DNA from: a virus
Taxonomy: Duplodnaviria; Heunggongvirae; Uroviricota; Caudoviricetes
Virus record (IMG/VR): IMGVR_UViG_2778261693_000009
Length of the DNA: 13,613 nt
Direction: 5' to 3' (one strand)
Below, piece by piece: positions 1,009 to 13,613 of the stretch. The position numbers and the translations under genes are program-made. The first letter of the stretch is position 1; each line of letters begins with the position of its first letter. Below the pieces are notes generated by a model. The model was given only the letters and a program-made list of their open reading frames with translations, had not been told where the DNA came from and did not search any database.

Positions 1009-1081
1009 GTCCTCTTAGTTAAATGGATATAACGAGCCCCTCCTAAGGGCTAATTGCAGGTTCGATTCCTGCAGGGGACAC
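1009..1081 (+). tRNA. argW: tRNA-Arg, anticodon CCU (argW-type); 3' CCA not fully encoded
   Basis: Cloverleaf folded by hand: acceptor stem 1009..1015 pairs with 1073..1079 (one G-U pair); D-stem 1018..1021 with 1030..1033; anticodon stem 1035..1039 with 1047..1051; anticodon loop 1040..1046 (CTCCTAA, anticodon CCT at 1042..1044); T-stem 1056..1060 with 1068..1072; T-loop TTCGATT. Discriminator A at 1080 is followed by C-T-T rather than C-C-A. Confidence 0.9.
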
Positions 1082-1107
1082 TTTAAAGACCTTTCTCTAC
1101 ATTTCAC

Positions 1108-1187
1108 TTCATTACATAACCACTTAAAAAACAGTAAGTTATCACCGAATCGGCCTGATTTTCATTTCAGTTAATTTCATGACATTA
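1108..1187 (+). promoter_or_regulatory. int upstream region carrying two sequence boxes that recur upstream of alpA (candidate shared regulator or Int arm-type sites)
   Basis: Box 1 TTCATTACATAAC at 1108..1120 is identical to 3528..3540. Box 2 TAATTTCATGACATTA at 1172..1187 is identical to 3549..3564 (19 of 20 matches when the preceding cag is included). Confidence 0.4.
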
Positions 1188-1266
1188 CAACCTCGTGATG
1201 GTATAAGTGATGGTATTCCCCAGTTCGATATGCAGATACCATCAATTTACCAAAATGAGTACAGAT

Positions 1267-2541
1267 ATGGCCATTAATGTGCTTTCCCCCAAACAGATAG
1301 AAAACGCCAAGCCGAAGACCAATGATTACAAACTTACCGATGGAGGGAGTTTGTATCTACTGGTACGAAAGACTGGTGGAAAATACTGGCGTATGAATTA
1401 TCGTTTTGATGGAAAACAAGTGACATTGGCATTAGGGGTCTACCCAGATGTCTCACTTGCAACAGCGCGGAAACGGCGTGATGAAGCCAGGCAACTACTA
1501 GCCGATGGTCGTGATCCTCGCGAAGCAAAGAAACCCAAAAAGGAAGACCCAATTTCCCCCACGTTCGAGAGTGTTGCCAGAGAGTGGCATAGTGGAACGA
1601 TGGGGCATCCTGAGTGGAAAGAGATCACCCGTAAAAAAATTCTCCGAGAAATGGAAAACCACCTCTTTCCTGCCATCGGTTCAAAGCCTATCGATACGCT
1701 CAAAACCCGTGACTTGATGCCGATGCTGGTTGAGATGACTGAGAAAGGAATTGGTGCCACAACGAGCCGGGTAAAAACCACTATGACGAGCATCTTCCGT
1801 TATGCCGTGCAACGTGGAATTGTCGATTACAACCCTGCCCACGATCTAAAAGGTGCAATTACGACCCCCAAAGTACGACATCGCCCCGCACTACCTCTCG
1901 AACGTTTACCTGAACTGTTAGCGAAAACGAGAAGTTACACGGGAAGACCATTGACTCGCCTAGCAGTTCTATTTTCCCTGCACACTTTTGTGCGATCCAG
2001 CGAACTACGACATGCCAGATGGGAGGAGATCGACATTGAAAATGGGCTATGGACGATACCAGGACAACGTGAAGAGATCGCAGGGGTTAAATTCTCAGAG
2101 CGGGGTGCAAAGATGGGGGCTGCTCATTATGTCCCGCTATCTAGTCAGGCTATCGGGGTACTGGAGGATATAAGGAAAATCAGTGGTGAATATCTGCTGG
2201 TTTTCCCCGGTGACAGCAACCCATATAAACCGATGAGCGAAAACACAGTTAATAAAGCACTGCGAACGATGGGTTACGACACTCAAAGTGATGTTTGCTT
2301 GCATGGGTTCAGGGCGATGGCCTGCTCTGCACTGACCGAATCAGGACTCTGGTCACGCGATGCAGTTGAACGGCAGATGAGTCACCAAGAAAGAAACGAA
2401 GTGCGGGCAGCATATGTGCATCTTGCGCAGCACATGCAGGAACGCCGCAGAATGATGCAATGGTGGTCTAATTATCTGGAACTAAATAAGGACGAATTTC
2501 ATGCTCCTTATGACTTATCAGGTATTAACATTATCAATTAA
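1267..2541 (+). CDS. P4-type site-specific tyrosine integrase (N-terminal Arm-type DNA-binding domain plus C-terminal catalytic domain)
   Basis: Lies immediately downstream of the tRNA. N-terminus MAINVLSPKQIENAKP...DGGSLYLLVRKTGGKYWRMNYRFDGKQVTLALGVYPDVSLATARKRRDEAR is typical of P4-like integrase arm-binding domains. C-terminal region contains HGFRAMA and RAAYVH (candidate catalytic His/Arg/Tyr) and the tail RRRMMQWW seen in argW-targeting IntS-like integrases. Start is ambiguous: in-frame ATGs at 1207, 1255 and 1267, none with a strong SD. Confidence 0.85.
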   Translation: MAINVLSPKQIENAKPKTNDYKLTDGGSLYLLVRKTGGKYWRMNYRFDGKQVTLALGVYPDVSLATARKRRDEARQLLADGRDPREAKKPKKEDPISPTFESVAREWHSGTMGHPEWKEITRKKILREMENHLFPAIGSKPIDTLKTRDLMPMLVEMTEKGIGATTSRVKTTMTSIFRYAVQRGIVDYNPAHDLKGAITTPKVRHRPALPLERLPELLAKTRSYTGRPLTRLAVLFSLHTFVRSSELRHARWEEIDIENGLWTIPGQREEIAGVKFSERGAKMGAAHYVPLSSQAIGVLEDIRKISGEYLLVFPGDSNPYKPMSENTVNKALRTMGYDTQSDVCLHGFRAMACSALTESGLWSRDAVERQMSHQERNEVRAAYVHLAQHMQERRRMMQWWSNYLELNKDEFHAPYDLSGINIIN

Positions 2542-2571
2542 ATTTTCTTATGATTTAAAACAGAGGTCATA

Positions 2572-3453
2572 ATGCAGCATTCAAAAGAGAATGAAACTAT
2601 ATTCTTAGGAAATCTATGGATTGACAAAAAAATACCACCATTAGAATATTGTTCATTTGAACGCGCTTCAAGACTATTAGAATGCGAGATTGATGATTTA
2701 TTACACCTATACGAAATAGGCGCTTTTAATATCGCATTCAAGGCGGATGGACTTGCAGTTAGATTTAATGTTAATTTCCTCTATAAAAATCAGAAAATGG
2801 AAATTGACTTAATTCATCCCGTATTAACTAATCAATCACTAGAGATGGAATTTTCAACAATATGGTATGACCTTAAAGATGACTCCTTTGAACATTTTGA
2901 AAATGGGCTTCAAATTATAGGATTTGCCTGTGGTATTTGGTACGCCGATGATATGATAAGTGACATAAAAAATGGATTAGCTATAGATCCAGATTATGAA
3001 TTCAGGCTTAAACCGGTAAAAATACGAGATAATGTTTTGATGGCAACGGCCTCATATGAAGGAAATAAGGTCATTGATATTCCATTTGAAGATCTTCTTA
3101 TCATGCGAAGAGATTTAGAGTTAATATGGAAATCAGTAAAAACTGGAATTCCTATGCCAAGTTTACTTACGAAAAGAATTTCATCTGAACCTAAAATCCC
3201 CAAGCGATTAAATAACACTGCTGAGCATCATGCAAAAAATAGGGAGGGGTTATTAAATGCAGCCATATATATATTAGCAAAATACCCAAGCGAATGTCGT
3301 GGTGAAAGAAAAGAGATAAGTCCTGAAAAGTGGACTAACGCCATAATTAAACATTTAGGAGAGCTACCTCCAATATTTATCACTAATGAACAAGAAATCT
3401 TAAGAAAATTACGATTAGCGGTTAATCATGCGGGATTAAAACAAAAGGGGTAG
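2572..3453 (+). CDS. Hypothetical protein, 293 aa; AT-rich orphan cargo gene directly downstream of int
   Basis: Clean ORF with SD AGAGG 5 nt upstream of the ATG, 30 bp after the int stop. Markedly AT-rich by eye (roughly low-30s percent GC versus over 50 percent in the flanking core genes). No motif I recognise (no P-loop, no obvious nuclease or HTH signature, no hydrophobic segments). Confidence 0.7.
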   Translation: MQHSKENETIFLGNLWIDKKIPPLEYCSFERASRLLECEIDDLLHLYEIGAFNIAFKADGLAVRFNVNFLYKNQKMEIDLIHPVLTNQSLEMEFSTIWYDLKDDSFEHFENGLQIIGFACGIWYADDMISDIKNGLAIDPDYEFRLKPVKIRDNVLMATASYEGNKVIDIPFEDLLIMRRDLELIWKSVKTGIPMPSLLTKRISSEPKIPKRLNNTAEHHAKNREGLLNAAIYILAKYPSECRGERKEISPEKWTNAIIKHLGELPPIFITNEQEILRKLRLAVNHAGLKQKG

Positions 3454-3519
3454 ACTGAAACAATCTACAGGTAGAGTTGATTACACTACCTTCACAGCAT
3501 TTTGATATCCCCATAGTAT

Positions 3520-3547
3520 CTGCCGTGTTCATTACATAACACGGCAG
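3520..3547 (+). promoter_or_regulatory. Perfect 10-bp inverted repeat (CTGCCGTGTT / AACACGGCAG) with an 8-nt spacer, just upstream of alpA
   Basis: Left arm 3520..3529, right arm 3538..3547. The repeat encloses box 1 (TTCATTACATAAC) and its right arm overlaps the weak SD region of alpA (ATG at 3556). No T-run follows, so it is more likely an operator or translational-control hairpin than a terminator. Confidence 0.4.
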
Positions 3548-3555
3548 GTAATTTC

Positions 3556-3771
3556 ATGACATTAAAAACTTATCCTATCACTGGACATGCCCGCCCACGA
3601 GCTACTGCTGACTTTTTGCAAATAAGTACGGTTACTCTCTGGCGCTGGGAAAAGAACAATCCTGAATTTCCCAAATCTATACGCATTTCAAAACGGGTAT
3701 CTGTTTACGATGCACAAGAAATTAGGCAGTGGGTTAAAGCTCAATCAGCAGGATTGGAGGAAGTAGTGTAA
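3556..3771 (+). CDS. alpA: AlpA-family (prophage CP4-57 regulator-like) small DNA-binding regulator/excisionase-type protein
   Basis: 71-aa protein containing FLQISTVTLWRWEKNNPEFPKSIRISKRVSVYDAQEIRQWV, which fits the AlpA/Xis-type winged-helix pattern. Located between int and the replication module as in P4-like elements. Confidence 0.75.
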   Translation: MTLKTYPITGHARPRATADFLQISTVTLWRWEKNNPEFPKSIRISKRVSVYDAQEIRQWVKAQSAGLEEVV

Positions 3772-3790
3772 TGACAATATTAACAAAGCT

Positions 3791-3810
3791 GGGGAGAAAA
3801 AAGCCTCCCC
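3791..3810. terminator. Candidate bidirectional hairpin between convergent alpA and the RHH gene
   Basis: GGGGAG (3791..3796) / CTCCCC (3805..3810) 6-bp stem with an A-rich loop; on the minus strand the loop reads as a T-run. Weak as a terminator. Confidence 0.25.
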
Positions 3811-3820
3811 AACGTATTAA

Positions 3821-4015
3821 TCAATTCTTTGGTTCTAAACCTCGGCTTTGTAACTCTTTGCGTAGAATGCGCTTGATCCAAGCCGCTAGCGATTCATCGC
3901 CATCCTGCTGTTGTGCTTGTTCCATCAGTTCACGCAGTTCAGGGTCAAGTCGGAACTGGAATGGCGGATTCCCACGTCTTTCATTTTTGTGTGTTGACAC
4001 GTCAATTACACCCAT
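3821..4015 (-). CDS. Ribbon-helix-helix (Arc/MetJ-like) small DNA-binding protein, candidate repressor
   Basis: 64-aa protein; FQFRLDPELRELMEQAQQ...SLAAWIKRILRKEL fits a beta-strand then two helices (RHH fold). Transcribed divergently from the replication operon. Weak or absent SD. Confidence 0.55.
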   Translation of the reverse strand: MGVIDVSTHKNERRGNPPFQFRLDPELRELMEQAQQQDGDESLAAWIKRILRKELQSRGLEPKN

Positions 4016-4021
4016 TGTAAT
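3994..4021 (+). promoter_or_regulatory. Candidate sigma70 promoter for the rightward early/replication operon
   Basis: TTGACA at 3994..3999, 16-nt spacer, TGTAAT at 4016..4021. Overlaps the start of the divergent RHH gene and the TGTAATG/CATTACA repeats. Confidence 0.45.
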
Positions 4022-4049
4022 GTATTTATGTGTAATGACACATTACACA
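4003..4049. promoter_or_regulatory. Operator-like cluster of TGTAATG / CATTACA half-sites
   Basis: TGTAATG at 4016..4022 and 4031..4037, inverted CATTACA at 4041..4047, and related AATTACA at 4004..4010; all overlap the candidate promoter between the RHH gene and the rightward operon. Confidence 0.4.
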
Positions 4050-4131
4050 CAGAAAAACAAAATAGCAACGCCCCGGAGTGTTTGCAGCACCACCGAGGCG
4101 TCTGACCAGCACGTTATATGAGGTAACGAAG

Positions 4132-4308
4132 ATGGCTAAACAGAAGTGTACCTGGTTATTTGCGGCGATCAACCGCAGTCAACGTAATGCCCGTCCGGTG
4201 ATGTTAAGGATCACCGCAGATAACGAGCGATCAGCGCGGCGCAGACTTGCCCCGGACTATGTACTGAGCTTTGCCGGGCGCATTCCCTGCGGAGGTGAAC
4301 ATGCGTAA
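4132..4308 (+). CDS. Small protein resembling the Icd-like (host cell division inhibitor) family of P4-like elements; assignment from memory
   Basis: ATG at 4132 preceded by GAGG at 4121..4124. 58-aa product MAKQKCTWLFAAINRSQRNARPVMLRITADNERSARRRLAPDYVLSFAGRIP. Its 3' end overlaps the next ORF by 8 nt. Confidence 0.45.
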   Translation: MAKQKCTWLFAAINRSQRNARPVMLRITADNERSARRRLAPDYVLSFAGRIPCGGEHA

Positions 4309-4660
4309 TTATCCGCATCCCGGCGAACGCTGGCAGCATGAACGTGGCTGGACGGTCACGATTATCCGATTAATAGAAGCCTCGCCCTCTGTGGCGCTGG
4401 TTAATCCTGAATTCAGCTGTGAAGTGCTGATACGTCATGACAGCGACAACCAGCTTTCTTCCTGCCCTCTGGCATGGTTTGAACAGCGATATACGCGCCT
4501 GTTTGATGTACCGCTCTTTAAGCCTGCACCAGCTCCTGCAGGCGGTAGTGGTTCCGGCCCGCTGACACTGCATCCGTCTGTGCTATTTATCCGCTGGCGG
4601 GAGCGTAGCATATGGCGTTCTGCTGAGCCTGATGACGGTCACTATTCAAAGTTTCTCTGA
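4301..4660 (+). CDS. Hypothetical protein (119 aa), satellite early operon
   Basis: ATG at 4301 with SD GGAGG at 4291..4295; overlaps the upstream gene. GC-normal; no recognised motif. Confidence 0.55.
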   Translation: MRNYPHPGERWQHERGWTVTIIRLIEASPSVALVNPEFSCEVLIRHDSDNQLSSCPLAWFEQRYTRLFDVPLFKPAPAPAGGSGSGPLTLHPSVLFIRWRERSIWRSAEPDDGHYSKFL

Positions 4661-4691
4661 CAAAACACCGCTGAAAACGGAGTAATCCACA

Positions 4692-4976
4692 ATGAATATT
4701 TCAAACGGGCACAACGGTGCTCAGGGCCAGACTTTGCCTGAAAAACACAATACCGGTGCTTTTGCCTATGGGTTGTCAGAGGACGGTTTCGGAAAGCTGA
4801 CCCGCGCAAGAAATGCCTGCGACATGCTCCAGCTTCTCTTTTCTGAATACCCGTCTCAGGCCGGAGCACTGGACGCAGGCTGTGCGCCTGGTGTCGCCGC
4901 GCTGATGGAGTACCTGCGGGCAGATTTGACGGATATTGCACACAGCTGCGCACTGATTGAAGGAGGTGCCAGATGA
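4692..4976 (+). CDS. Hypothetical protein (94 aa), satellite early operon
   Basis: ATG at 4692 with SD-like ACGGAG upstream; its stop overlaps the next start (ATGA). Identity unknown. Confidence 0.5.
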   Translation: MNISNGHNGAQGQTLPEKHNTGAFAYGLSEDGFGKLTRARNACDMLQLLFSEYPSQAGALDAGCAPGVAALMEYLRADLTDIAHSCALIEGGAR

Positions 4977-5356
4977 ACCAGCCGCAGGTTTCCATTTTCC
5001 CGGCAGAAATGACCACCGCGCTTTACCGGCGGGCTATTGCTTCAGCATGGCGGCAGAAAATGCTGAACGAAACTGGCAATGATCAGTATGGTCCGCACAG
5101 CCTGACGGTGGAGCGTATTGAAATGGCCATTGCGCTGCATATCGAGTGCGCACTGATTAACGAGTACGGCGAAGCACAGGGCGCCGCTGCCGCGCTGGCA
5201 CTGCTGACTGACATGCTGGAGCCGTCACTGCTGACCGCGCCGCCGGTACTGACCGCGCGCGGTTGTGAAGTAATGGCGGAGATGTACCGCACGCTTCCGG
5301 CGGCCTTTGATGTCTGCTGCAGTACCGGTGTGACGTTGTATCAGGGGGAAGTATGA
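4973..5356 (+). CDS. Hypothetical protein (127 aa), translationally coupled to the primase gene
   Basis: ATG at 4973 with SD GGAGG; its stop overlaps the primase start (ATGA at 5353..5356). Confidence 0.5.
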   Translation: MNQPQVSIFPAEMTTALYRRAIASAWRQKMLNETGNDQYGPHSLTVERIEMAIALHIECALINEYGEAQGAAAALALLTDMLEPSLLTAPPVLTARGCEVMAEMYRTLPAAFDVCCSTGVTLYQGEV

Positions 5357-8025
5357 CAATACAGACGGTTACGCAGATTTCAGCCGCCGCGCGGGGGAAA
5401 TGGCCCGTTATTCTGCAGATGCTGCGTATTGATGTACCTGAAAACGGCAGGCACGGTCCCTGCCCGAAATGTGGGGGCAAGGATCGTTTTCGCCTTGATG
5501 ACCTTGACGGGCGCGGGACGTGGATCTGCAGCCAGTGTGGCAATGGTGACGGTCTGGATCTGGTTAAGCTCGTAACCGGTTACAGCGTCAGAAAGGCTGC
5601 GCAGGAGGTGGCGCAGGTGCTTAATGTGCCGGATGTGCAGGAACTGCCTGTTAAGCCTGCCAGACAAAAAGCCCCTAAACGCGACATGGGTCTTACCGTG
5701 GCGGCGCTGATGAAAGAGAGCCACACGGGAGAAAGCGCCTATCTGACAGGAAAAGGGTTCGCCGGATACCCGGCCTCTCTGACCGGAAGCGTGCAGCATA
5801 TCAGCGGTAAGGATTTTCCTGCCGGTTCCCTGCTGTTACCACTCACGACCAACACCGGAGCCGTGACCGGTGCACAGCTTATCGCCCCGACGGGTGAAAA
5901 AAGCATACTGCCCGGCAGCACGATGAAAGGCGCGTTTGTGTCGCTCAGCCCGTTACCGTCTGAACCACCGGTACAGGTGGTGATTACCGAAGGTTACGCT
6001 ACGGCGCTGACGGTAAGCCAGCTCACTGCCGGATGCGTAGTGGCTGCCATATCTGCGGGCAACCTGCCCAATGTGGCGCAGTCGCTGCGGGCACGCTGGC
6101 CTGAGGTAAAAATTATCATCGCCGGTGATAACGATTTTCAGGATGGGGGGGAGAATCCCGGCAGAGCCTTTGCTGAACGGGCGGCAAAAGTTGTTGGCGG
6201 CTGGATGACGCTGCCACCAGGAGAGATTAAGGCTGACTGGAATGACTTTCATCGGGAGCACGGTATTACCCGTGCCCGTGAAGCCTTTCGCAACGGTCTG
6301 GTACTGTGCGGGGAAGGCCGCACGCAACTGCCGCACGGGTTCCGTCTTACCCAGGAATATCTCTGGTATGAAAAGCAGGTACAGCGCAACGGTGAGACGG
6401 AGATCCAGAACGTCAAAATATGCAGCCCGCTGCGCGTGACGGCAATCACCTGCGATGCCGATGGCGGTAACTTCGGACGACTGCTGGAATGGGAAGATAC
6501 GTGGGGTGAGCGTCGCCGCTGGGCGATGCCGATGGAAATGCTGAGCGGCAGTGGTGAGGAACTGCGCCGGGTACTGCTGGTTAACGGGCTGTCTTATATC
6601 AGCACTACCGGTGAGGCACGCGCACGCCTGATGGAATATATCTCACTGTGTAAACCGGAACGCCGCGTGACCTGCGTCAGCCGTACTGGCTGGCATGGTC
6701 AGGTTTACGTCCTGCAGGATGAGGTCAGCGGTGAAGGTGCAGAGGGTGTCATTCTCCAGACCACTTCCGTGCAGGGGCGTGATTTCCGCGTGTCGGGCAC
6801 AACAGAGGAATGGCGGGAGAACGTATCCCGCTACTGTACCGGCAACTCTCGCGTGGCATTTGCTGTCAGCCTGGCCTTTGCTGCACCACTGTTACGGCTG
6901 GTTGGTATGGACGGCGGCGGCTACCACCTCAAAGGGGAATCGACAGACGGTAAGACCACCACCATGAAAGCGGCAACCTCCGTCTGCGGCGGGCCTGACT
7001 ACTGGCAGACATGGCGGGCCACCGGCAACGCGCTGGAGGGATGCGCCAGCCGCCGCAACGATGCCGCCATGATGCTTGATGAGATCCGGGAAGTTGACGG
7101 ACGCGAGGCAGGCAATATCGCCTACATGCTGGCAAACGGTCAGGGCAAGGGCCGTGCCGGTACGGACGGTGAGCTGCGTACCCGTAAGCAGTGGCGCCTG
7201 TTGTTCTTTTCAACTGGCGAGTTGTCTCTGACCGAACATGCGGCAAAGGCCGGTGAGCGTACTTTTGCCGGGATGGAAGTCAGGATGATCCAGATCCCCA
7301 GCGATTCCGGGAAATTTGGCGTTTTTGAGGAGCTGCACGGCTTCGACAGCGGCAAGGCTCTGGCAGAGCATCTTGAATGGGCCACGTCCTGCTACTACGG
7401 TTCGCCGTTCCGGGAGTGGCTAAAAGCACTGACCGCTGATCTTAACGGACTAACGGCACAGGCAAAATCGCTGATGAAGGAATATGCTGCCGCCCTGACT
7501 CCGAAAGATGCAGGCAACCAGGTGGGCCGGGCTGTGAATCGCTTTGCACTGGTGGCGATGGCGGGTGAACTGGCAACCCGTCTGGGTATCACCGGCTGGC
7601 CTGAGGGTGAAGCACTGCGGGCAACCCGCGTCTGCCTGAACGCATGGCTGAAAGATCGCGGGCACACCGCCAATCAGGAAGATATTGCCGCACTGGAGCA
7701 GGTTCGCAGTTTCTTTACCGCGAATCAGTACAGCCGCTTTGCAGACTGGTATGACGAGCGCAACCGCCCCGGCAATATGGTGGGCTGGCGCAGGGTGGAG
7801 AAAGGCAGTACCGCGCAGGGCACGGAAGCTGTCACTACGTTCTATGTCATGCCGTCCGGCTGGAAAGAAATCTGCAGGGGATTTGACCCGCGCAAGGTGG
7901 CGCGTCTGTGCGCAGATCGTGGATACCTGCTGCCCTCCACTGATGGCAAACTCCAGACAACCATTCGCCCGCCAGAGATGAATCCCCGCAGGCTCTATGT
8001 CTTCAACAGCGAGGTGCCGGGTTAA
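5353..8025 (+). CDS. P4 alpha-like bifunctional DNA primase-helicase (zinc ribbon, TOPRIM, D5/SF3-type P-loop NTPase)
   Basis: 890-aa ORF with SD GGGGGAAG. Zinc ribbon C37-P-K-C40 ... C59-S-Q-C62. TOPRIM-like ITEGY (nt about 5984..6001) and AGDNDF (nt about 6121..6138). Walker A GESTDGKT (nt about 6934..6960) and Walker B MMLDEI (nt about 7066..7083). Confidence 0.9.
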   Translation: MTIQTVTQISAAARGKWPVILQMLRIDVPENGRHGPCPKCGGKDRFRLDDLDGRGTWICSQCGNGDGLDLVKLVTGYSVRKAAQEVAQVLNVPDVQELPVKPARQKAPKRDMGLTVAALMKESHTGESAYLTGKGFAGYPASLTGSVQHISGKDFPAGSLLLPLTTNTGAVTGAQLIAPTGEKSILPGSTMKGAFVSLSPLPSEPPVQVVITEGYATALTVSQLTAGCVVAAISAGNLPNVAQSLRARWPEVKIIIAGDNDFQDGGENPGRAFAERAAKVVGGWMTLPPGEIKADWNDFHREHGITRAREAFRNGLVLCGEGRTQLPHGFRLTQEYLWYEKQVQRNGETEIQNVKICSPLRVTAITCDADGGNFGRLLEWEDTWGERRRWAMPMEMLSGSGEELRRVLLVNGLSYISTTGEARARLMEYISLCKPERRVTCVSRTGWHGQVYVLQDEVSGEGAEGVILQTTSVQGRDFRVSGTTEEWRENVSRYCTGNSRVAFAVSLAFAAPLLRLVGMDGGGYHLKGESTDGKTTTMKAATSVCGGPDYWQTWRATGNALEGCASRRNDAAMMLDEIREVDGREAGNIAYMLANGQGKGRAGTDGELRTRKQWRLLFFSTGELSLTEHAAKAGERTFAGMEVRMIQIPSDSGKFGVFEELHGFDSGKALAEHLEWATSCYYGSPFREWLKALTADLNGLTAQAKSLMKEYAAALTPKDAGNQVGRAVNRFALVAMAGELATRLGITGWPEGEALRATRVCLNAWLKDRGHTANQEDIAALEQVRSFFTANQYSRFADWYDERNRPGNMVGWRRVEKGSTAQGTEAVTTFYVMPSGWKEICRGFDPRKVARLCADRGYLLPSTDGKLQTTIRPPEMNPRRLYVFNSEVPG

Positions 8026-8052
8026 GGCTTTGCGTGAGTCTTATTTATTAAG

Positions 8053-8247
8053 GGTAACAGGTGAAACAGGTGAAACAACCGTATTTTACAGGGCTGAACC
8101 TGTTCCACCTTCTGAAATAGTGAGGTGGAACAGATGTAACGCCAGCCAATCCGCTGTTCCACCTTGTTACCCGCGATGTTCCACCGGTGCAGTGTATATA
8201 AGTGCTTTATAAAACAAAGCTGTAACACATGTTTCACCTGTTCCACC
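8053..8247. repeat. Iteron cluster; candidate replication origin (P4 ori/crr-like) bound by the alpha protein
   Basis: Nine-mer TGTT(C/T)CACC in both orientations: GGTGAAACA at 8060..8068 and 8069..8077 (tandem, period 9, preceded by degenerate GGTAACA); TGTTCCACC at 8101..8109, 8155..8163, 8177..8185, 8239..8247; inverse GGTGGAACA at 8124..8132; TGTTTCACC at 8230..8238. An AT-rich stretch at 8191..8226 lies between clusters. Non-coding and immediately downstream of the primase-helicase gene. Confidence 0.7.
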
Positions 8248-8335
8248 GCATCAGGGACATAAAGCAGACTGAAACTGAGGGCATTTTTATCTGGCTGGCT
8301 TTCATAGCCACGTCTGAATAACCGCAAGCGCCCGT

Positions 8336-8391
8336 TGTGCCAGCCACCACACACTGAGTACCGATAGTGTGCTTGTGTCAGCCACGACACA
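8336..8391 (+). promoter_or_regulatory. Candidate Ogr/Delta-dependent late promoter (two TGT-N12-ACA dyads) upstream of the sid-like gene
   Basis: TGT(8336..8338)-N12-ACA(8351..8353) and TGT(8374..8376)-N12-ACA(8389..8391), both within 90 bp upstream of the ATG at 8426. The first dyad sits about 55 bp upstream of a plausible transcription start. Confidence 0.35.
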
Positions 8392-8425
8392 ATTGACGTA
8401 ACGAACCAACCCGACAGGAGAAGTC

Positions 8426-9169
8426 ATGAACAACACCGCAGTGAATAACAACCTTTCCACTTTTCCGGCTGTAACGCAGCGGGCACTGGAAACCATGAAC
8501 ACAGCCAGAAACGCATGGCTTGAAGCACGTCGTCAGCAGAAAGCGGCAGCGGATAATATTGCGACAATCCGCCAGCGTCGCGCTGAGATGGAAGCCACGA
8601 CGAACACACTGAATGAGGAGTGGCGCACGCTGTTTCGTGAAAGTCAGGGCGTGGTTTCAAAGGAAATGAAAAAACTGCGCACGGAAATTGCGCTGGGACG
8701 AGAAACGCTTGAGGATTTTGATGAGCTGCTGGCGGCTCAGGAAAGCGAAAATGCACTTTTGCCGCAGAAAGCTGCGGAATTAGCCGGAAAGTATATCCAC
8801 GCGCATAACATTCTTGTGGATATTCGCGCAAAACAAATCTGGGAAGATTTTATGCAATCGCATGGAAAAGCGCTTATTCAGACGCTGAGCCTGCTTAAAT
8901 CCACAATGGGCCGGGAAGCCAGTGCCGTTGTGGGTGTGGTGAATTCAGTTAATGACCCGGACACAGTGCTGAAAGACTTTATTCATAAACATATCACCAG
9001 ACCGGCTCTGGCTAACGATGCGATGCCTGAACAGGACCCGGTGTTTAAACTGGCGGGAATTGCCCCGGATTATGCGGCGCGTCTGGATTTCAGTAATCAA
9101 CTCTCTCCGGCAGCTATGCATAAAATTAAGGTTCGTCAGGAACTTGCTGAGAAGGAGAAAGCAGTATGA
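8426..9169 (+). CDS. Sid-like protein (candidate capsid size-determination scaffold); assignment by size, position and predicted helical character
   Basis: 247 aa (P4 Sid is about 244 aa). SD AGGAG at 8416..8420. Charged, helix-prone sequence rich in A/E/R/K/Q. First gene of a three-gene operon ending in an Ogr/Delta-like gene. Confidence 0.4.
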   Translation: MNNTAVNNNLSTFPAVTQRALETMNTARNAWLEARRQQKAAADNIATIRQRRAEMEATTNTLNEEWRTLFRESQGVVSKEMKKLRTEIALGRETLEDFDELLAAQESENALLPQKAAELAGKYIHAHNILVDIRAKQIWEDFMQSHGKALIQTLSLLKSTMGREASAVVGVVNSVNDPDTVLKDFIHKHITRPALANDAMPEQDPVFKLAGIAPDYAARLDFSNQLSPAAMHKIKVRQELAEKEKAV

Positions 9170-9717
9170 CGGCCCGAGGCACGCCTGACCAGGCACTTAC
9201 CAGTTTTCGGAATGCCCGTATTCTGTGGGCCGGACATAGTGAGAGCCGAAAAGCCGTTGAACAACAGATAGCATCTCTCCTCGCTGCCACAGAAAAACCA
9301 GCAGATTATGCCCGACAGCTCGAATTACTGCGGGAACGTCTGGATGTGCTGAAATGGCAAATTAACTGTGCTGCGCGCGAATGCATTTACTCGCAGCATT
9401 TACTGATGGAAGCCTGCACAGAAGCCGCTCTCAGCAATTTTATGCAGGCGAATGGGGCAGCCCTGACATCTGCACTGGCTCCGTTCCTGAAGGGGCGCGG
9501 GGGGGTTGACGTTGCGTCCCGTATATTACGCAGTGCTCTGGTTCGCCAGCTGACAATAACACCGCCTGAAATTGCCGGGGATTATCGTGAGATCCTGGAT
9601 GAATCCGGTTTGATGCCTGACCCCGGGATGATTCGTGATTGCCAGGGCTCTTACACCCCGGCACAACATCTGCGTTTTCAGCAACGCCTGAATGACATTA
9701 ACGATATACAGGAGTGA
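9166..9717 (+). CDS. Psu-like protein (polarity suppression / capsid decoration family); from size and remembered motifs
   Basis: 183 aa (P4 Psu is about 190 aa). Start overlaps the upstream stop (ATGA). Contains KWQINCAARECIY and FMQANGAALTSALAP, which resemble my recollection of P4 Psu. Shares the local motif FMQxxGxAL with the upstream 247-aa protein. Confidence 0.45.
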   Translation: MTARGTPDQALTSFRNARILWAGHSESRKAVEQQIASLLAATEKPADYARQLELLRERLDVLKWQINCAARECIYSQHLLMEACTEAALSNFMQANGAALTSALAPFLKGRGGVDVASRILRSALVRQLTITPPEIAGDYREILDESGLMPDPGMIRDCQGSYTPAQHLRFQQRLNDINDIQE

Positions 9718-9792
9718 TATTAATGGCACTTAAATGTCCGGAATGCGGTACAGTTGCACACGCCAGAACAGCAGCCTATGAAGCTCCGTCAG

Positions 9793-9796
9793 TTAA
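9793..9796. repeat. IS5 target-site duplication, left copy (TTAA)
   Basis: TTAA immediately precedes the left IS5 inverted repeat. Confidence 0.8.
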
Positions 9797-10991
<1,195 letters not shown>

Positions 10992-10995
10992 TTAA
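10992..10995. repeat. IS5 target-site duplication, right copy (TTAA)
   Basis: TTAA immediately follows the right IS5 inverted repeat. Confidence 0.8.
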
Positions 10996-11214
10996 ACGCT
11001 CGTGGTATCAGTGCCAGAATCTGGAATGTTCCTGCACATTTACGGCACTGGAGAGTGTGGATAAGATAATCATGAAACCCCGACGCAATGAACAGCTATC
11101 AGACAAAGCACAATCCCCGGAAAAACAACAGCAAACACTTAATCGCTATGGCTCCGCGTCAAAACTTTCAAGCCGTCAGCAGATTCCTGTCTGATTAGAA
11201 AGAACGCCCACGTA

Positions 11215-11240
11215 ATCCCGGTCCAGTACCGGGATTTTTT
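11215..11240 (+). terminator. Rho-independent terminator closing the late operon
   Basis: ATCCCGG (11215..11221) / CCGGGAT (11229..11235) 7-bp stem with a 7-nt loop, followed by a T-run (11235..11240). About 20 bp after the Ogr/Delta-like stop. Confidence 0.7.
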
Positions 11241-11402
11241 ATCCCCTTTTCCTGGCTGGCATGAGAGCGAATGAGTGCATGTCTATGGCGCATGAAAACG
11301 CATGAGTCTTATGCACCATTTTTGACGAGAAAACCCTTGTTTGGTGGCTTCTGAGACGATTTATGAGGTGCATGAAAACCAGTCTGTTAAGCGAAGCGGG
11401 CA

Positions 11403-11421
11403 GGCGTGCGGGGCTGCGCAC
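11403..11421. other. Candidate degenerate cos-like sequence (P2/P4-type cohesive end); low confidence
   Basis: GGCGTGCGGGGCTGCGCAC loosely resembles the P2/P4 19-nt cohesive end GGCGAGGCGGGGAAAGCAC as I remember it (about 12 of 19 ungapped). It sits between the late operon and the AT-rich cargo, where cos lies in P4. Confidence 0.2.
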
Positions 11422-11621
11422 GGAGGCGGAATAAATAGTAATGCTATGGATGCTGGGCACACATAGATAAGAGGTTTACAAATAGTATGCTTGTTGTCGT
11501 AACTGATAGGGGTCTATCAAAATCAGAAATCAAAAACAGTATTTCGTGTAATTTATAGAATTTTCACAGAAAACATATACAATCGTTTCTGATACAGGAG
11601 TCTGATTAAGTTGGGATTATT

Positions 11622-13613
11622 ATGGCCATTCAAAAAAAACAAACAAAAAATTCTGAAAGAAGTATTAAAAGCCAGTTAGAAAAACTTACGGCTGAAAAAG
11701 CCATTTCCGAATATATTTGGAATGCTTTTGATGCTGAAGCCACAAATATTAATATTACAGTTATCCCAAATGGTTTAAGTGGGATATCTTCAATAGAAAT
11801 TATTGATGATGGAACTGGCATCGATTTTAATGAAGTCGATGAAACTTTCGGGCAGTTTTTAGATTCCAAGAAGAAAGCAAAACGAACGCCTGTCACAAGA
11901 GGACATAAAGGTAAGGGGCGGTTTTCATTCTGTAAATTCGCTGATAAAGCCGAATGGACTAGCTGGCGTAATGGAGAGAAATTTACGCTAACTATAGTTT
12001 CATCACATCTAAATGAATATGAGCATTCAGATTTATCCATGTGCTCTCATAAAAATTCTGGAACTAAGGTGGTCTTTAATCCTGTAACAATTACTGAAGA
12101 TTATTTTAATTCAATAGTTATACCCTATTTGCAGAACGATATATCTTGGCTGTTGGTGGCCAAACCAAAATTAAAATTAAAAATAAACGGTCAATCTATT
12201 AGCCCAATAGGATATGCTTCAACTTCAAATAATATTGAATTTGGAGAGGTCGATTTTAATTCAAAAACAGTTATATGGTCTAGTAAACCTGTAGTAGAAA
12301 AATCATATATATATTATTTAAATAATCAAGGTGATATTGTTTACAAAGAGTTTTCTGAGATGAACAAAAAAGGATTTGATTGTTCATCCTATGTCACATC
12401 AAGTTGGTTTGATGATTTTTCTGAATCAAACGACTTGTTTAATGAATCGAAAAACAGTGTTGACTCAGATATTTTTAAATACATTAGCCTACATGTTAAA
12501 GGTAATTTAAGGGAAGAGTATAGAAAATATAAAAATAATGCAGCAGATCAACTCATTCAAAACTATTTAAATGAGGGTGTGTTTCCAGAATATAAAGGTG
12601 AGAATAGAATGCTCAATGAATTTAAAAGGAATCAACTCATTGAAACTATAAAGATAATTTATGAGGCCGAACCTCAAATTTTCTCCACACTAAACAAGAA
12701 ACAAAAAAAAATCTTAATTAAACTATTAGATAGAATTGTTGAAACCAATAATTTATCCAGTCTCTTTGACATTTTTGAAGGTATAGTTTCCCTATCCGAA
12801 GATGAGGTTGATAAACTTTCATCTGTAATAAAAAGAAGTTCACTTTCTAATATTACGAGGACTTTGTCATTTATTAATGATAGACTGGATGTTATTGATT
12901 ATTTTAAAAAAATACTATATGAGAAAAAGAAAGAATCATATGAAGTAAAGCACATTCAAAAGAGCATAGAAAATAATTTATGGCTTTTTGGAGAGCAATA
13001 CACTCTAGTTGCATCAGAAGATGATAAGTTTGATAAAGCTCTTAGAAAGTATCTGGAGAAGACTAAAGGTTTTAACGAAGCACATTATAATAAGTATAGT
13101 GTACAGCATCCAGATAAAAATAAAGAAATGGATATATTTGCAGCACAAAAAATAAAGCGTTACACTGAAAATAATGAAGAATATTTTCATTGCATTGTGA
13201 TTGAATTAAAGAAACCAAGTATAAAACTCGGTGATGAAGAACTCGCACAAATAAAGTTATATAAAAATATAATATCTGCGACTGATGAATTTAAAGACGA
13301 TAATACAAAATGGGATTTTATTTTAGTGGGAAATGATATATCTAATAGCAATATCACTGCTGCAAATTTATCATCAGATCTAGAAACGAATAAAATACAT
13401 GGTGAGTTTGGCTTGGTTCAAAAAACAACAAATATGAAAATTTACGTCAAAACGTGGAAGCAAATTTTAAATGAGTATGATCTTAGATATAACGACCTGA
13501 TCGATAAGCTTAAGTTGAAAGAGTTAGAAATTGCAGAAGATATGGGGCCTGATGAACTCACGGCAAAAATTTTAGAAAAAACGGCAAGACTTCCGACTTC
13601 GATACAGGCTTAG
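11622..13613 (+). CDS. GHKL-family (Bergerat-fold) ATPase with a C-terminal PD-(D/E)xK-like putative nuclease region; AT-rich cargo gene and candidate anti-phage factor
   Basis: 663-aa complete ORF whose stop codon is the last three bases of the window. Weak SD GGGA 5 nt upstream. N-terminal motifs: E30-x3-N34-x2-D37-A38 (EYIWNAFDA), D62-D-G64-T-G66 (G1 box), G94-x2-G97-x-G99-R-F (G2-like). C-terminal motifs: D504 (EMDIF) ... E528-L-K530 (IVIELKK) ... Q543. Very AT-rich by eye (about 30 percent GC), unlike the satellite core. Confidence 0.75.
   Translation: MAIQKKQTKNSERSIKSQLEKLTAEKAISEYIWNAFDAEATNINITVIPNGLSGISSIEIIDDGTGIDFNEVDETFGQFLDSKKKAKRTPVTRGHKGKGRFSFCKFADKAEWTSWRNGEKFTLTIVSSHLNEYEHSDLSMCSHKNSGTKVVFNPVTITEDYFNSIVIPYLQNDISWLLVAKPKLKLKINGQSISPIGYASTSNNIEFGEVDFNSKTVIWSSKPVVEKSYIYYLNNQGDIVYKEFSEMNKKGFDCSSYVTSSWFDDFSESNDLFNESKNSVDSDIFKYISLHVKGNLREEYRKYKNNAADQLIQNYLNEGVFPEYKGENRMLNEFKRNQLIETIKIIYEAEPQIFSTLNKKQKKILIKLLDRIVETNNLSSLFDIFEGIVSLSEDEVDKLSSVIKRSSLSNITRTLSFINDRLDVIDYFKKILYEKKKESYEVKHIQKSIENNLWLFGEQYTLVASEDDKFDKALRKYLEKTKGFNEAHYNKYSVQHPDKNKEMDIFAAQKIKRYTENNEEYFHCIVIELKKPSIKLGDEELAQIKLYKNIISATDEFKDDNTKWDFILVGNDISNSNITAANLSSDLETNKIHGEFGLVQKTTNMKIYVKTWKQILNEYDLRYNDLIDKLKLKELEIAEDMGPDELTAKILEKTARLPTSIQA

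Follow-up and report, generated by a model that had tools for sequence, protein, structure and literature searches.

A probable P4-family phage satellite with a rearranged gene order at the argW locus of Escherichia coli

The closest described systems to the element considered here are P4 and the P4-like satellites of P2-like (Peduoviridae) phages. In prophage form P4 (NC_001609, 11,624 bp) is annotated in the order attL, int, cargo, cos, psu, delta, sid, ori, vis..alpha, attR, with sid, delta and psu reading away from ori toward cos and the vis..alpha genes reading away from it toward attR. Gene order among P4-like elements is reported to be highly conserved (77%, and a further 20% with psu and delta swapped; PMC8628076), and an element is counted as a P4-like satellite, of Type A, B or C, when at least 5 of 7 components are clustered (SatelliteFinder/p4finder; PMC8628076, PMC10085698). 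The element described here is found in a stretch of 13,613 nt, IMG/VR virus record IMGVR_UViG_2778261693_000009, the whole of which was analysed and is referred to as the window. It is very probably an integrated P4-family satellite that parasitises P2-like phages.

When the seven components are scored by homology searches, five are intact in the window and a sixth, delta, is disrupted, all of them within 8.5 kb. As in P4, a P4-type integrase is present at the 3′ end of a tRNA gene together with an AlpA/Vis-type regulator, an Icd-like open reading frame (ORF), a cnr-like DUF5375 gene that immediately precedes the primase gene, an alpha-like zinc-ribbon/Toprim primase and TGTTCACC-like iterons. 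Sid, Psu and Delta homologues follow a promoter that has the two TGT-N12-ACA sites of P4 Psid in identical register, a P2-type cos immediately precedes a variable cargo slot, the intact element measures ~11.5-11.9 kb, and virion genes are lacking. A preliminary description of this DNA had listed a tRNA, an integrase, AlpA, a ribbon-helix-helix (RHH) protein, a primase-helicase, iterons, a Sid/Psu/Ogr-Delta operon, a cos-like spacer and cargo; all of these are present, and the markers, the late promoter in register with Psid and a cos that aligns with those of P4 and P2-like phages bear out its identification of a P4-like satellite. It was silent on an IS5 at 9797-10991, on a 293-aa low-GC ORF and on the fact that the cargo ORF ends at the last base of the window.

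The order in the window is int, ORF293, alpA .. primase, sid, psu, delta, cos, cargo, with all genes on the + strand except the RHH gene and the IS5 transposase. In P4 int is separated from the early operon by the late operon, cos and cargo, which are divergent from the early operon, whereas here they follow the primase in the same direction; the match to the layout of integrated P4 that had been claimed thus does not hold against NC_001609. The late operon itself is sid-psu-delta rather than the sid-delta-psu of P4. P4 has the C4/CI RNA and isrK, but the window has neither and carries a divergent Arc-like RHH gene instead; P4 has epsilon/Ash, for which no homologue is detectable here. The helicase half of the replication protein is of the DUF927 type and not of the P4 alpha type, Delta, at 90 aa, contains a single zinc-finger domain compared with two in the 166-aa protein of P4, and Sid and Psu are only 24-29% identical to those of P4.

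The late operon and the cos region, which are the features most closely tied to P2-like helpers, are as follows.

8336-8391, + strand: late promoter region with two TGT-N12-ACA dyads, at 8336-8353 and 8374-8391
8426-9169, + strand: Sid homologue, the external scaffold forcing small capsids (PDB 7jw1_E, Sid, E = 4.4e-10)
9166-9717, + strand: Psu homologue, capsid decoration protein and Rho inhibitor (Pfam Psu, 1.3e-44; PDB 3rx6, 1.3e-13)
9723-9796, + strand: 5′ fragment of delta, the Ogr/Delta zinc-finger activator (Pfam Ogr_Delta profile positions 1-23)
9797-10991, - strand: IS5, 1195 bp (transposase at 9943-10959; Pfam DDE_Tnp_1 and DUF772)
10996-11194, + strand: 3′ fragment of delta (Pfam Ogr_Delta profile positions 19-47)
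11214-11236, + strand: intrinsic terminator closing the late operon, a 9-bp stem and then a T run
11270-11421, + strand: cos region, from alignment with the P4 cos and four Peduoviridae cos regions

An ungapped alignment with P4 Psid, the dyads of which are at 9493-9510 and 9531-9548, places the dyads, a CACAATT..TAAC block and the ATG all in register. Both elements have their dyads spaced by 38 bp, with 35 nt from the end of the second dyad to the sid ATG. In P2 and P4 the TGT-N12-ACA dyad is the site of late promoters at which the Ogr/Delta activators work, and the dyads at 8336-8391 are predicted to be such activator sites. The Sid homologue belongs to phrog_6165 (8e-93), the family containing P4 Sid, and is 24% identical to P4 Sid; in the structure search its match to Sid (4.4e-10) is better than that to Psu (5e-5). 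In RefSeq this protein goes by "septation initiation protein" in many genomes, whereas others have it as "phage polarity suppression protein", and the former name looks like a mistaken expansion of "Sid". The Psu homologue is 29% identical to P4 Psu. When the two delta fragments are rejoined, the product is 45% identical to P4 Delta, and relatives carry an intact gene of 273 nt.

The sequence between the delta fragments has the features of a complete IS5, i.e., a length of 1195 bp, 16-bp terminal inverted repeats (GGAAGGTGCGAATAAG and CTTGTTCGCACCTTCC), a DDE transposase and a 4-bp YTAR target duplication, here TTAA at 9793-9796 and 10992-10995. IS5 was found at this site in none of the 5426 complete E. 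coli genomes searched, and thus the insertion looks recent and private to this copy. The Ogr-Delta gene that had been placed in the late operon is indeed there, but the break caused by IS5 had gone unnoticed. An ORF at 10922-11194 was considered as an intact delta and rejected, as an ATG internal to IS5 is fused by chance, in frame, to the delta 3′ fragment; the fused ORF is coincidentally 90 aa, the length of intact Delta.

The non-coding stretch between delta and the cargo gene (11195-11621) contains cos. The segment 11270-11421 is similar to intergenic DNA of Yersinia MLG42, Fels-2, RE2010, SopEPhi, Klebsiella peduoviruses and E. coli phage 500465-1, and in annotated helpers the match lies between gpA/DinI and a variable gene (TIR protein, AIPR Abi protein or hypothetical) that precedes the portal gene Q. 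The conserved blocks are GTGCATGTCTATGGCGCATGAAAACGCATGA and ATGAGGTGCATGAAAACCA. In a multiple alignment with the joined P4 ends, Fels-2, E. coli phage 500465-1, a Klebsiella peduovirus and Yersinia MLG42, the blocks read GCATGA..CGCATGA and ATG(C)AGGTGCATGAAAACCA (P4: CTGCATTAAAACC), and AAGCGGGC(A/G) stands directly before GGCG(A/T)G, the point at which the P4 genome starts. On the basis of this alignment the cohesive-end region is proposed to be 11403-11421, with AAGCGGGCA|GGCGTGCGGGGCTGCGCAC as the proposed cleavage region. The first 11 nt of the proposed cohesive end GGCGTGCGGGGCTGCGCAC are those of E. coli phage 500465-1. The exact P2/P4 cohesive end GGCGAGGCGGGGAAAGCAC is absent from the window at up to 3 mismatches, and the site was found only by way of the helper cos alignment.

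Homology among the E. coli copies of the element stops at 11416-11419, inside the proposed cohesive end, and beyond this point the cargo differs. A cos-motif scan of IMG/VR gave 26 loci of related satellites in which the cos region is conserved; in all of them the sid/psu/delta genes of this lineage are on the left side of cos, and the sequences on its right side are unrelated. These sequence comparisons show a variable cargo slot that starts inside the predicted cos, with cargo apparently exchanged at the cos boundary. Such swapping agrees with the published cargo hotspot adjacent to cos (PMC9122126, PMC13586616), where a low-GC variable gene likewise lies immediately to the right of cos and homology breaks inside cos; the hotspot is, however, between cos and attR in the present lineage and between int and psu in the published satellites. 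P2-like helpers display the same layout, with cos followed by cargo and then portal gene Q. In two IMG/VR contigs (L032, 4122-11275, and L033, 1-12844) cos forms the junction between the backbone (primase, sid, delta) and a cargo gene of 558 aa with a complete portal gene of the P2 type, the product of which (341 aa, Phage_portal) is 56% identical to Fels-2 Q; an IS3-family element is next in L033. By their sequence these contigs look like satellite/helper recombinants at cos.

The left boundary of the element and its integrase are given below.

1009-1081, + strand: tRNA-Arg(CCU), argW (ARAGORN; Rfam tRNA, 63.4 bits)
1061-1081, + strand: attL core TTCGATTCCTGCAGGGGACAC, a single copy in the window that is repeated as attR in relatives
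1267-2541, + strand: P4-type tyrosine integrase (Pfam Arm-DNA-bind_3, Phage_int_M and Phage_integrase)

The window opens with yfdC (1-933), a formate/nitrite transporter family gene by Pfam, and the tRNA gene is next. The locus is E. coli argW, as the preliminary description had it, and adjoins yfdC. In K-12 the same site has yfdC-argW and then the cryptic prophage CPS-53 bearing IntS; the integrase of the present element is 52% identical to P4 Int and only 30% identical to IntS, in keeping with the earlier statement that the two elements are distinct. The 3′ end of argW has been rebuilt by the element and reads GGGGACAC followed by TTT (window 1078-1084). As there is no encoded CCA, the tRNA would need post-transcriptional CCA addition. 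K-12 argW reads ACACCA at this place, and so do the displaced attR copies in relatives (27950-27975 in L001 and 20602-20627 in L007).

A second copy of the tRNA 3′ end is not present in the window even with 3 mismatches allowed, in agreement with the preliminary description, and the element runs past the window as had been thought. The closest relative, NZ_CM136170 (L001), is 99.2-99.6% identical over the whole window, with the lack of IS5 as the sole difference, and has a second att copy 535 bp past the ATPase stop, i.e., ~540 bp past the window end. The att repeats of the relatives are at 27950 and 37442 in L001 and at 20602 in L007 and L008; one G is absent from the middle copy of NZ_CM136170 (27950) and from the attR copy of NZ_CP069710. 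NZ_CM169475 and NZ_CP069710 have the same backbone with a different, two-gene cargo and a clean attR beside dsdC. The distance from cargo to attR is 0.3-0.55 kb in relatives, and the att-to-att units are 11,889 and 11,541 bp in length, similar to the 11,624 bp of P4, none with virion or structural genes. These repeats show that the element entered the argW 3′ end via tyrosine-integrase recombination across the 21-bp core. By extension an attR of sequence TTCGATTCCTGCAGGG(G)ACACCA would be expected ~540 bp downstream of the window end, which would give the present copy, the attR of which is outside the window, a size of ~13.1 kb including IS5. It had been suggested that attR and further cargo lie downstream; the relatives support the attR but not the cargo, as only ~0.5 kb of non-coding DNA precedes attR in the closest of them.

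After its second att copy NZ_CM136170 continues with an unrelated second integrase island and then a third att copy. This tandem argW island (27950-37462) encodes a tyrosine integrase, a rolling-circle replication protein, an 826-aa SIR2-family protein and a serine recombinase, and the csc sucrose genes come after it.

The replication module lies upstream of the late promoter.

5353-8025, + strand: primase-helicase, 890 aa (Pfam Zn_Ribbon_Prim, Toprim_3 and DUF927)
8060-8247, in the interval from the primase gene to sid: cluster of eight iterons, TGTTYCACC, found in both orientations by a repeat search

Residues 5-316 of the primase-helicase are 38% identical to P4 alpha (E = 3e-48), and the helicase half shows no resemblance to alpha. 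The C-terminal half matches PDB 8tch ("Pathogenicity island protein") and 5dgk ("Active helicase"), as well as the NCBIfam SCCmec Cch helicase. By sequence the replication protein is a mosaic with an alpha-like N-terminal third and a helicase half of the DUF927/SaPI-Rep type; the earlier designation of an alpha-like primase-helicase thus applies to the former part only. Eight iterons are present where 0.23 are expected, and none of 200 shuffles reaches eight. They resemble the P4 type-1 ori repeat TGTTCAC(C), and the cluster is a candidate replication origin. An ORF that covers the iterons (7997-8212, 71 aa) has no matches and is unannotated in relatives, and the region was treated as non-coding.

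The genes between int and the primase gene, together with their putative control region, are the following.

2572-3453, + strand: ORF293, a low-GC accessory gene between int and alpA, 293 aa (GC 0.31-0.35)
3556-3771, + strand: AlpA-family regulator/excisionase (Pfam Phage_AlpA, 1.6e-7, above the gathering score; PHROG excisionase families)
3821-4015, - strand: Arc-like RHH gene (phrog_228 "Arc-like repressor", E = 8.9e-6; NCBIfam YlcI/YnfO)
4016-4049, between the divergent genes: operator-like inverted repeats TGTGTAATG-aca-CATTACACA and an extra TGTAATG half-site, from an inverted-repeat search
4132-4308, + strand: Icd-like small protein, first gene of the early operon (NCBIfam phage_ICD_like, 1e-23)
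4301-4660, + strand: hypothetical protein of phrog_30862 (PHROG, 2.7e-77; annotated in relatives)
4692-4976, + strand: hypothetical 94-aa protein in the position of P4 epsilon (phrog_14861)
4973-5356, + strand: DUF5375 protein (Pfam), homologue of P4 ORF106 (cnr), 40% identical and in the same PHROG, 5991

The RHH gene is divergent from the early operon, has a minus-strand terminator at 3813-3788 and is annotated in relatives; its product is a candidate repressor. The sequence TGTGTAATG-aca-CATTACACA is a perfect palindrome, and the intergenic region between the RHH and icd genes has promoter-like hexamers on both strands. TGTAATG is found seven times in the window (1.9 expected), at 1110, 1183, 3530, 3767, 4016, 4031 and 4041, in clusters upstream of int, upstream of alpA (in a hairpin at 3521-3548) and in the region where the RHH and icd promoters diverge. 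The heptamer is possibly an operator half-site common to these regions; alternatively, those copies that lie close to attL may serve as arm sites for the integrase. ORFs at 3771-4121 (+ strand) and 4271-4660, which use upstream TTG/GTG starts, were replaced by the RefSeq-supported minus-strand RHH gene and by shorter starts. The Icd-like protein is 54% identical over 46 aa to the "cI ORF" region of P4. The 94-aa protein does not match P4 epsilon by BLASTP (E = 1.1) and is in a different PHROG (phrog_14861 versus phrog_10016).

ORF293 has no match in Pfam, PHROG, PADLOC or NCBIfam. Only 14 homologues were found, with source names solely from Enterobacterales, and some share just the C-terminal quarter, which is common to some proteins of 316-320 aa at 55-67% identity. 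This pattern suggests a modular protein with a swappable N-terminal domain. The N-terminus has a helix-turn-helix appearance, by eye only.

To the right of cos is a single cargo gene.

11622-13613, + strand: 663-aa protein with a GHKL (MutL/MORC/Hsp90-like) ATPase and a probable C-terminal PD-(D/E)xK nuclease (Pfam HATPase_c_3, 2.5e-20, and a weak HSDR_N_2 match)

The gene has a GC content of 0.28-0.34. The N-terminal GHKL ATPase and the middle domain have fold matches to Hsp90, MutL and MORC, and the whole-protein fold search is dominated by the GHKL domain. Invariant residues of the C-terminal domain are D504, E528-x-K530 and Q543..Y547, and weak HSDR_N_2 matches are found by Pfam in 38 of the 42 family members. 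A model of this domain (pLDDT 71) gives fold matches that are not significant (E >= 0.03), at the top of which are the nuclease domains of MspJI, Avs3, EcoO109I, Cap4 and HamA. PADLOC gives only a weak type II restriction-enzyme match over the ATPase region. The closest described architecture is that of the GHKL-ATPase-containing Shedu proteins (type 1D, PMC10441436), which are also single polypeptides with an N-terminal HATPase_c_3 domain, then a middle domain like those of Hsp90, MORC and MutL, and a D...ExK...QxxxY signature at the C-terminal end. However the cargo protein differs from these in having no DUF4263 match by Pfam or PADLOC. Membership of Shedu was considered in the light of that paper and is not supported, as there is no DUF4263 in the Pfam results of the 42 members and no SduA/DUF4263 call by PADLOC.

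The cargo family is widespread as a single gene. Members are found in the same slot of a Pantoea satellite; in Serratia, at the yfdC locus, with a TIR gene as neighbour; in a Dickeya zeae satellite, where the gene stands between those for Ogr/Delta and the integrase; and in Vibrio (L038-L040), where long arrays of small co-directional ORFs resemble chromosomal integron cassettes. These mobile contexts make a role in defence a reasonable inference, and the gene is most likely a candidate single-gene anti-phage nuclease that would be regulated by its own GHKL ATPase. One Vibrio homologue is beside GmrSD and HEPN genes, and another is near a 320-aa integrase. The Dickeya zeae element (L041/L042, 430-10211) is a different satellite, located beside mlaA. 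Its products include a major capsid protein of the P2 type and a gpO-N scaffold, along with Ash, which was called in L042, a primase with DUF927, Ogr/Delta, the GHKL cargo and an integrase; on its gene content it would be a capsid-encoding relative of the P4-like elements.

By analogy with the biology of P4, an active P2-like helper would supply Ogr, which, normally along with the Delta of the satellite, would switch on sid-psu-delta via the two TGT-N12-ACA sites. Sid would then cage the helper capsid protein into small heads, Psu would decorate these heads and block Rho, the primase-helicase would replicate the excised circle from the iterons, and helper terminase would cut and package the satellite at cos. 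A number of observations weigh against reading the region as a satellite of this kind. The gene order departs from the one reported as conserved in P4-like elements (PMC8628076). The window has no epsilon/Ash by Pfam Phage_ASH or BLASTP, and no CI RNA (Rfam C4) or isrK at Rfam E <= 1, where only the tRNA was matched; the same search on P4 gave C4 at 74.9 bits and isrK at 60.8 bits. In P4, helper derepression goes with epsilon/Ash and immunity with CI RNA. Over its right half (CTGCGCAC) the proposed 19-nt cohesive end is unlike every helper cos examined (ATACGAGC in the Fels-2 type, AAAGCAC in P2/P4), none of which thus belongs to a matching helper. The attR is known from a 99%-identical relative only and not from the present genome. 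In the 13.6-kb window there is no helper phage, excision product or packaged DNA to be seen, and activity is inferred only. Finally, delta is split by IS5 after 74 nt (codon 24), so that the first Cys pair is cut off from the remainder of the zinc finger. This split and the size of ~13.1 kb indicate that the present copy is probably weakened; it would probably rely on helper Ogr, and its length may exceed the capacity of small heads.

The last points raise the question of whether the present copy is a dead, domesticated remnant, the mobilisation of which was ended by IS5, so that the island only carries the cargo (defence) gene and ORF293. The broken zinc finger, the excess of its inferred length over the 11.5-11.9 kb of relatives and the apparently recent, private nature of the insertion are all in accord with this. 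However all other genes are intact and the copy is 99.2-99.6% identical to its uninterrupted relative; delta is the last gene of the operon, so no polarity falls on sid or psu, and the promoter retains activator sites that helper Ogr could use. Halling and Calendar reportedly found in 1990 that ogr or delta alone is sufficient in P4, which also counts against a dead element, and on balance a remnant is rather unlikely.

It is far less probable that the region is an island of the phage-inducible chromosomal island (PICI) type, with a helper outside the P2 family and Psu-like genes that were merely acquired. The co-directional int-alpA-primase/helicase block is like that of Gram-negative PICIs, and the helicase half is in the DUF927 family of PDB 8tch, with 5dgk as a further relative, as in Staphylococcus aureus pathogenicity island (SaPI) replication modules. 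A typical P4-like element moreover scores as Type C in the PICI scheme of the SatelliteFinder paper (PMC10085698), and E. coli elements with Psu proteins ~31% identical to that of P4 were noted earlier and judged "not from P4-like phages" (Domainator paper, PMC11754643). Yet PICIs have packaging-redirection genes, where the present element has the P4 hijack module of Sid, Psu, Delta and a P2-type cos. These, the cnr-like gene, the alpha-like primase domain and the geometry of Psid all indicate P2-like helpers, and Pfam and PHROG scans of all window ORFs revealed no PICI packaging or capsid-morphogenesis genes (small terminase terS, Ppi/Rpp or CpmAB-like). That the window is the early region of a full-size temperate prophage, with structural genes beyond its end, could be entertained since the window stops before any attR, but is contradicted by the relatives, in which attR follows the cargo and is itself followed by dsdC or by the second, unrelated integrase island; the exclusion of a full-size prophage implied by the preliminary description is thus upheld.

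With the region taken as a P4-family satellite, a more tentative proposal concerns the lineage as a whole. It is conceivable that it forms a mechanistically distinct branch of the family, in which an RHH switch, with operators of the TGTAATG type upstream of int, of alpA and of the early operon, would replace CI-RNA immunity, another derepression factor would replace epsilon, and a helicase of the SaPI-Rep type would be fused to the P4 primase; the cargo would possibly be an uncharacterised single-gene anti-phage system.

The backbone from alpA to psu is present at >=80% coverage in 321 of the 5426 complete E. coli genomes (~6%), and the same architecture is found in Pantoea. No megablast match to the backbone was found in the deposited phage collection, and thus no deposited phage or P4 record resembles the lineage in nucleotide sequence. 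No experimental work on the lineage was found in the literature; it is known from databases. In the Pantoea copy delta and the GHKL cargo are separated by a third paralogue of the Psu-like kind (L037, 6792-7604; 270 aa, weak Pfam Psu).

The lineage is thus common, mobile, rearranged and of the P4 family, and spans E. coli, Salmonella and Pantoea. It is established that P4-like satellites abound in Enterobacterales and have defence hotspots adjacent to cos, and the present element mainly confirms this. It represents a well-resolved, rearranged sub-lineage that keeps the capsid-hijack module, the Psid architecture and cos while replacing the RNA immunity, epsilon and the helicase, and the regulation of which is probably unlike that of P4. 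The analysis also yields one candidate anti-phage gene, the GHKL-nuclease fusion, and direct sequence evidence of cargo exchange at cos. As such the lineage is a natural comparison for determining which functions of P4 are essential to parasitise P2-like phages.

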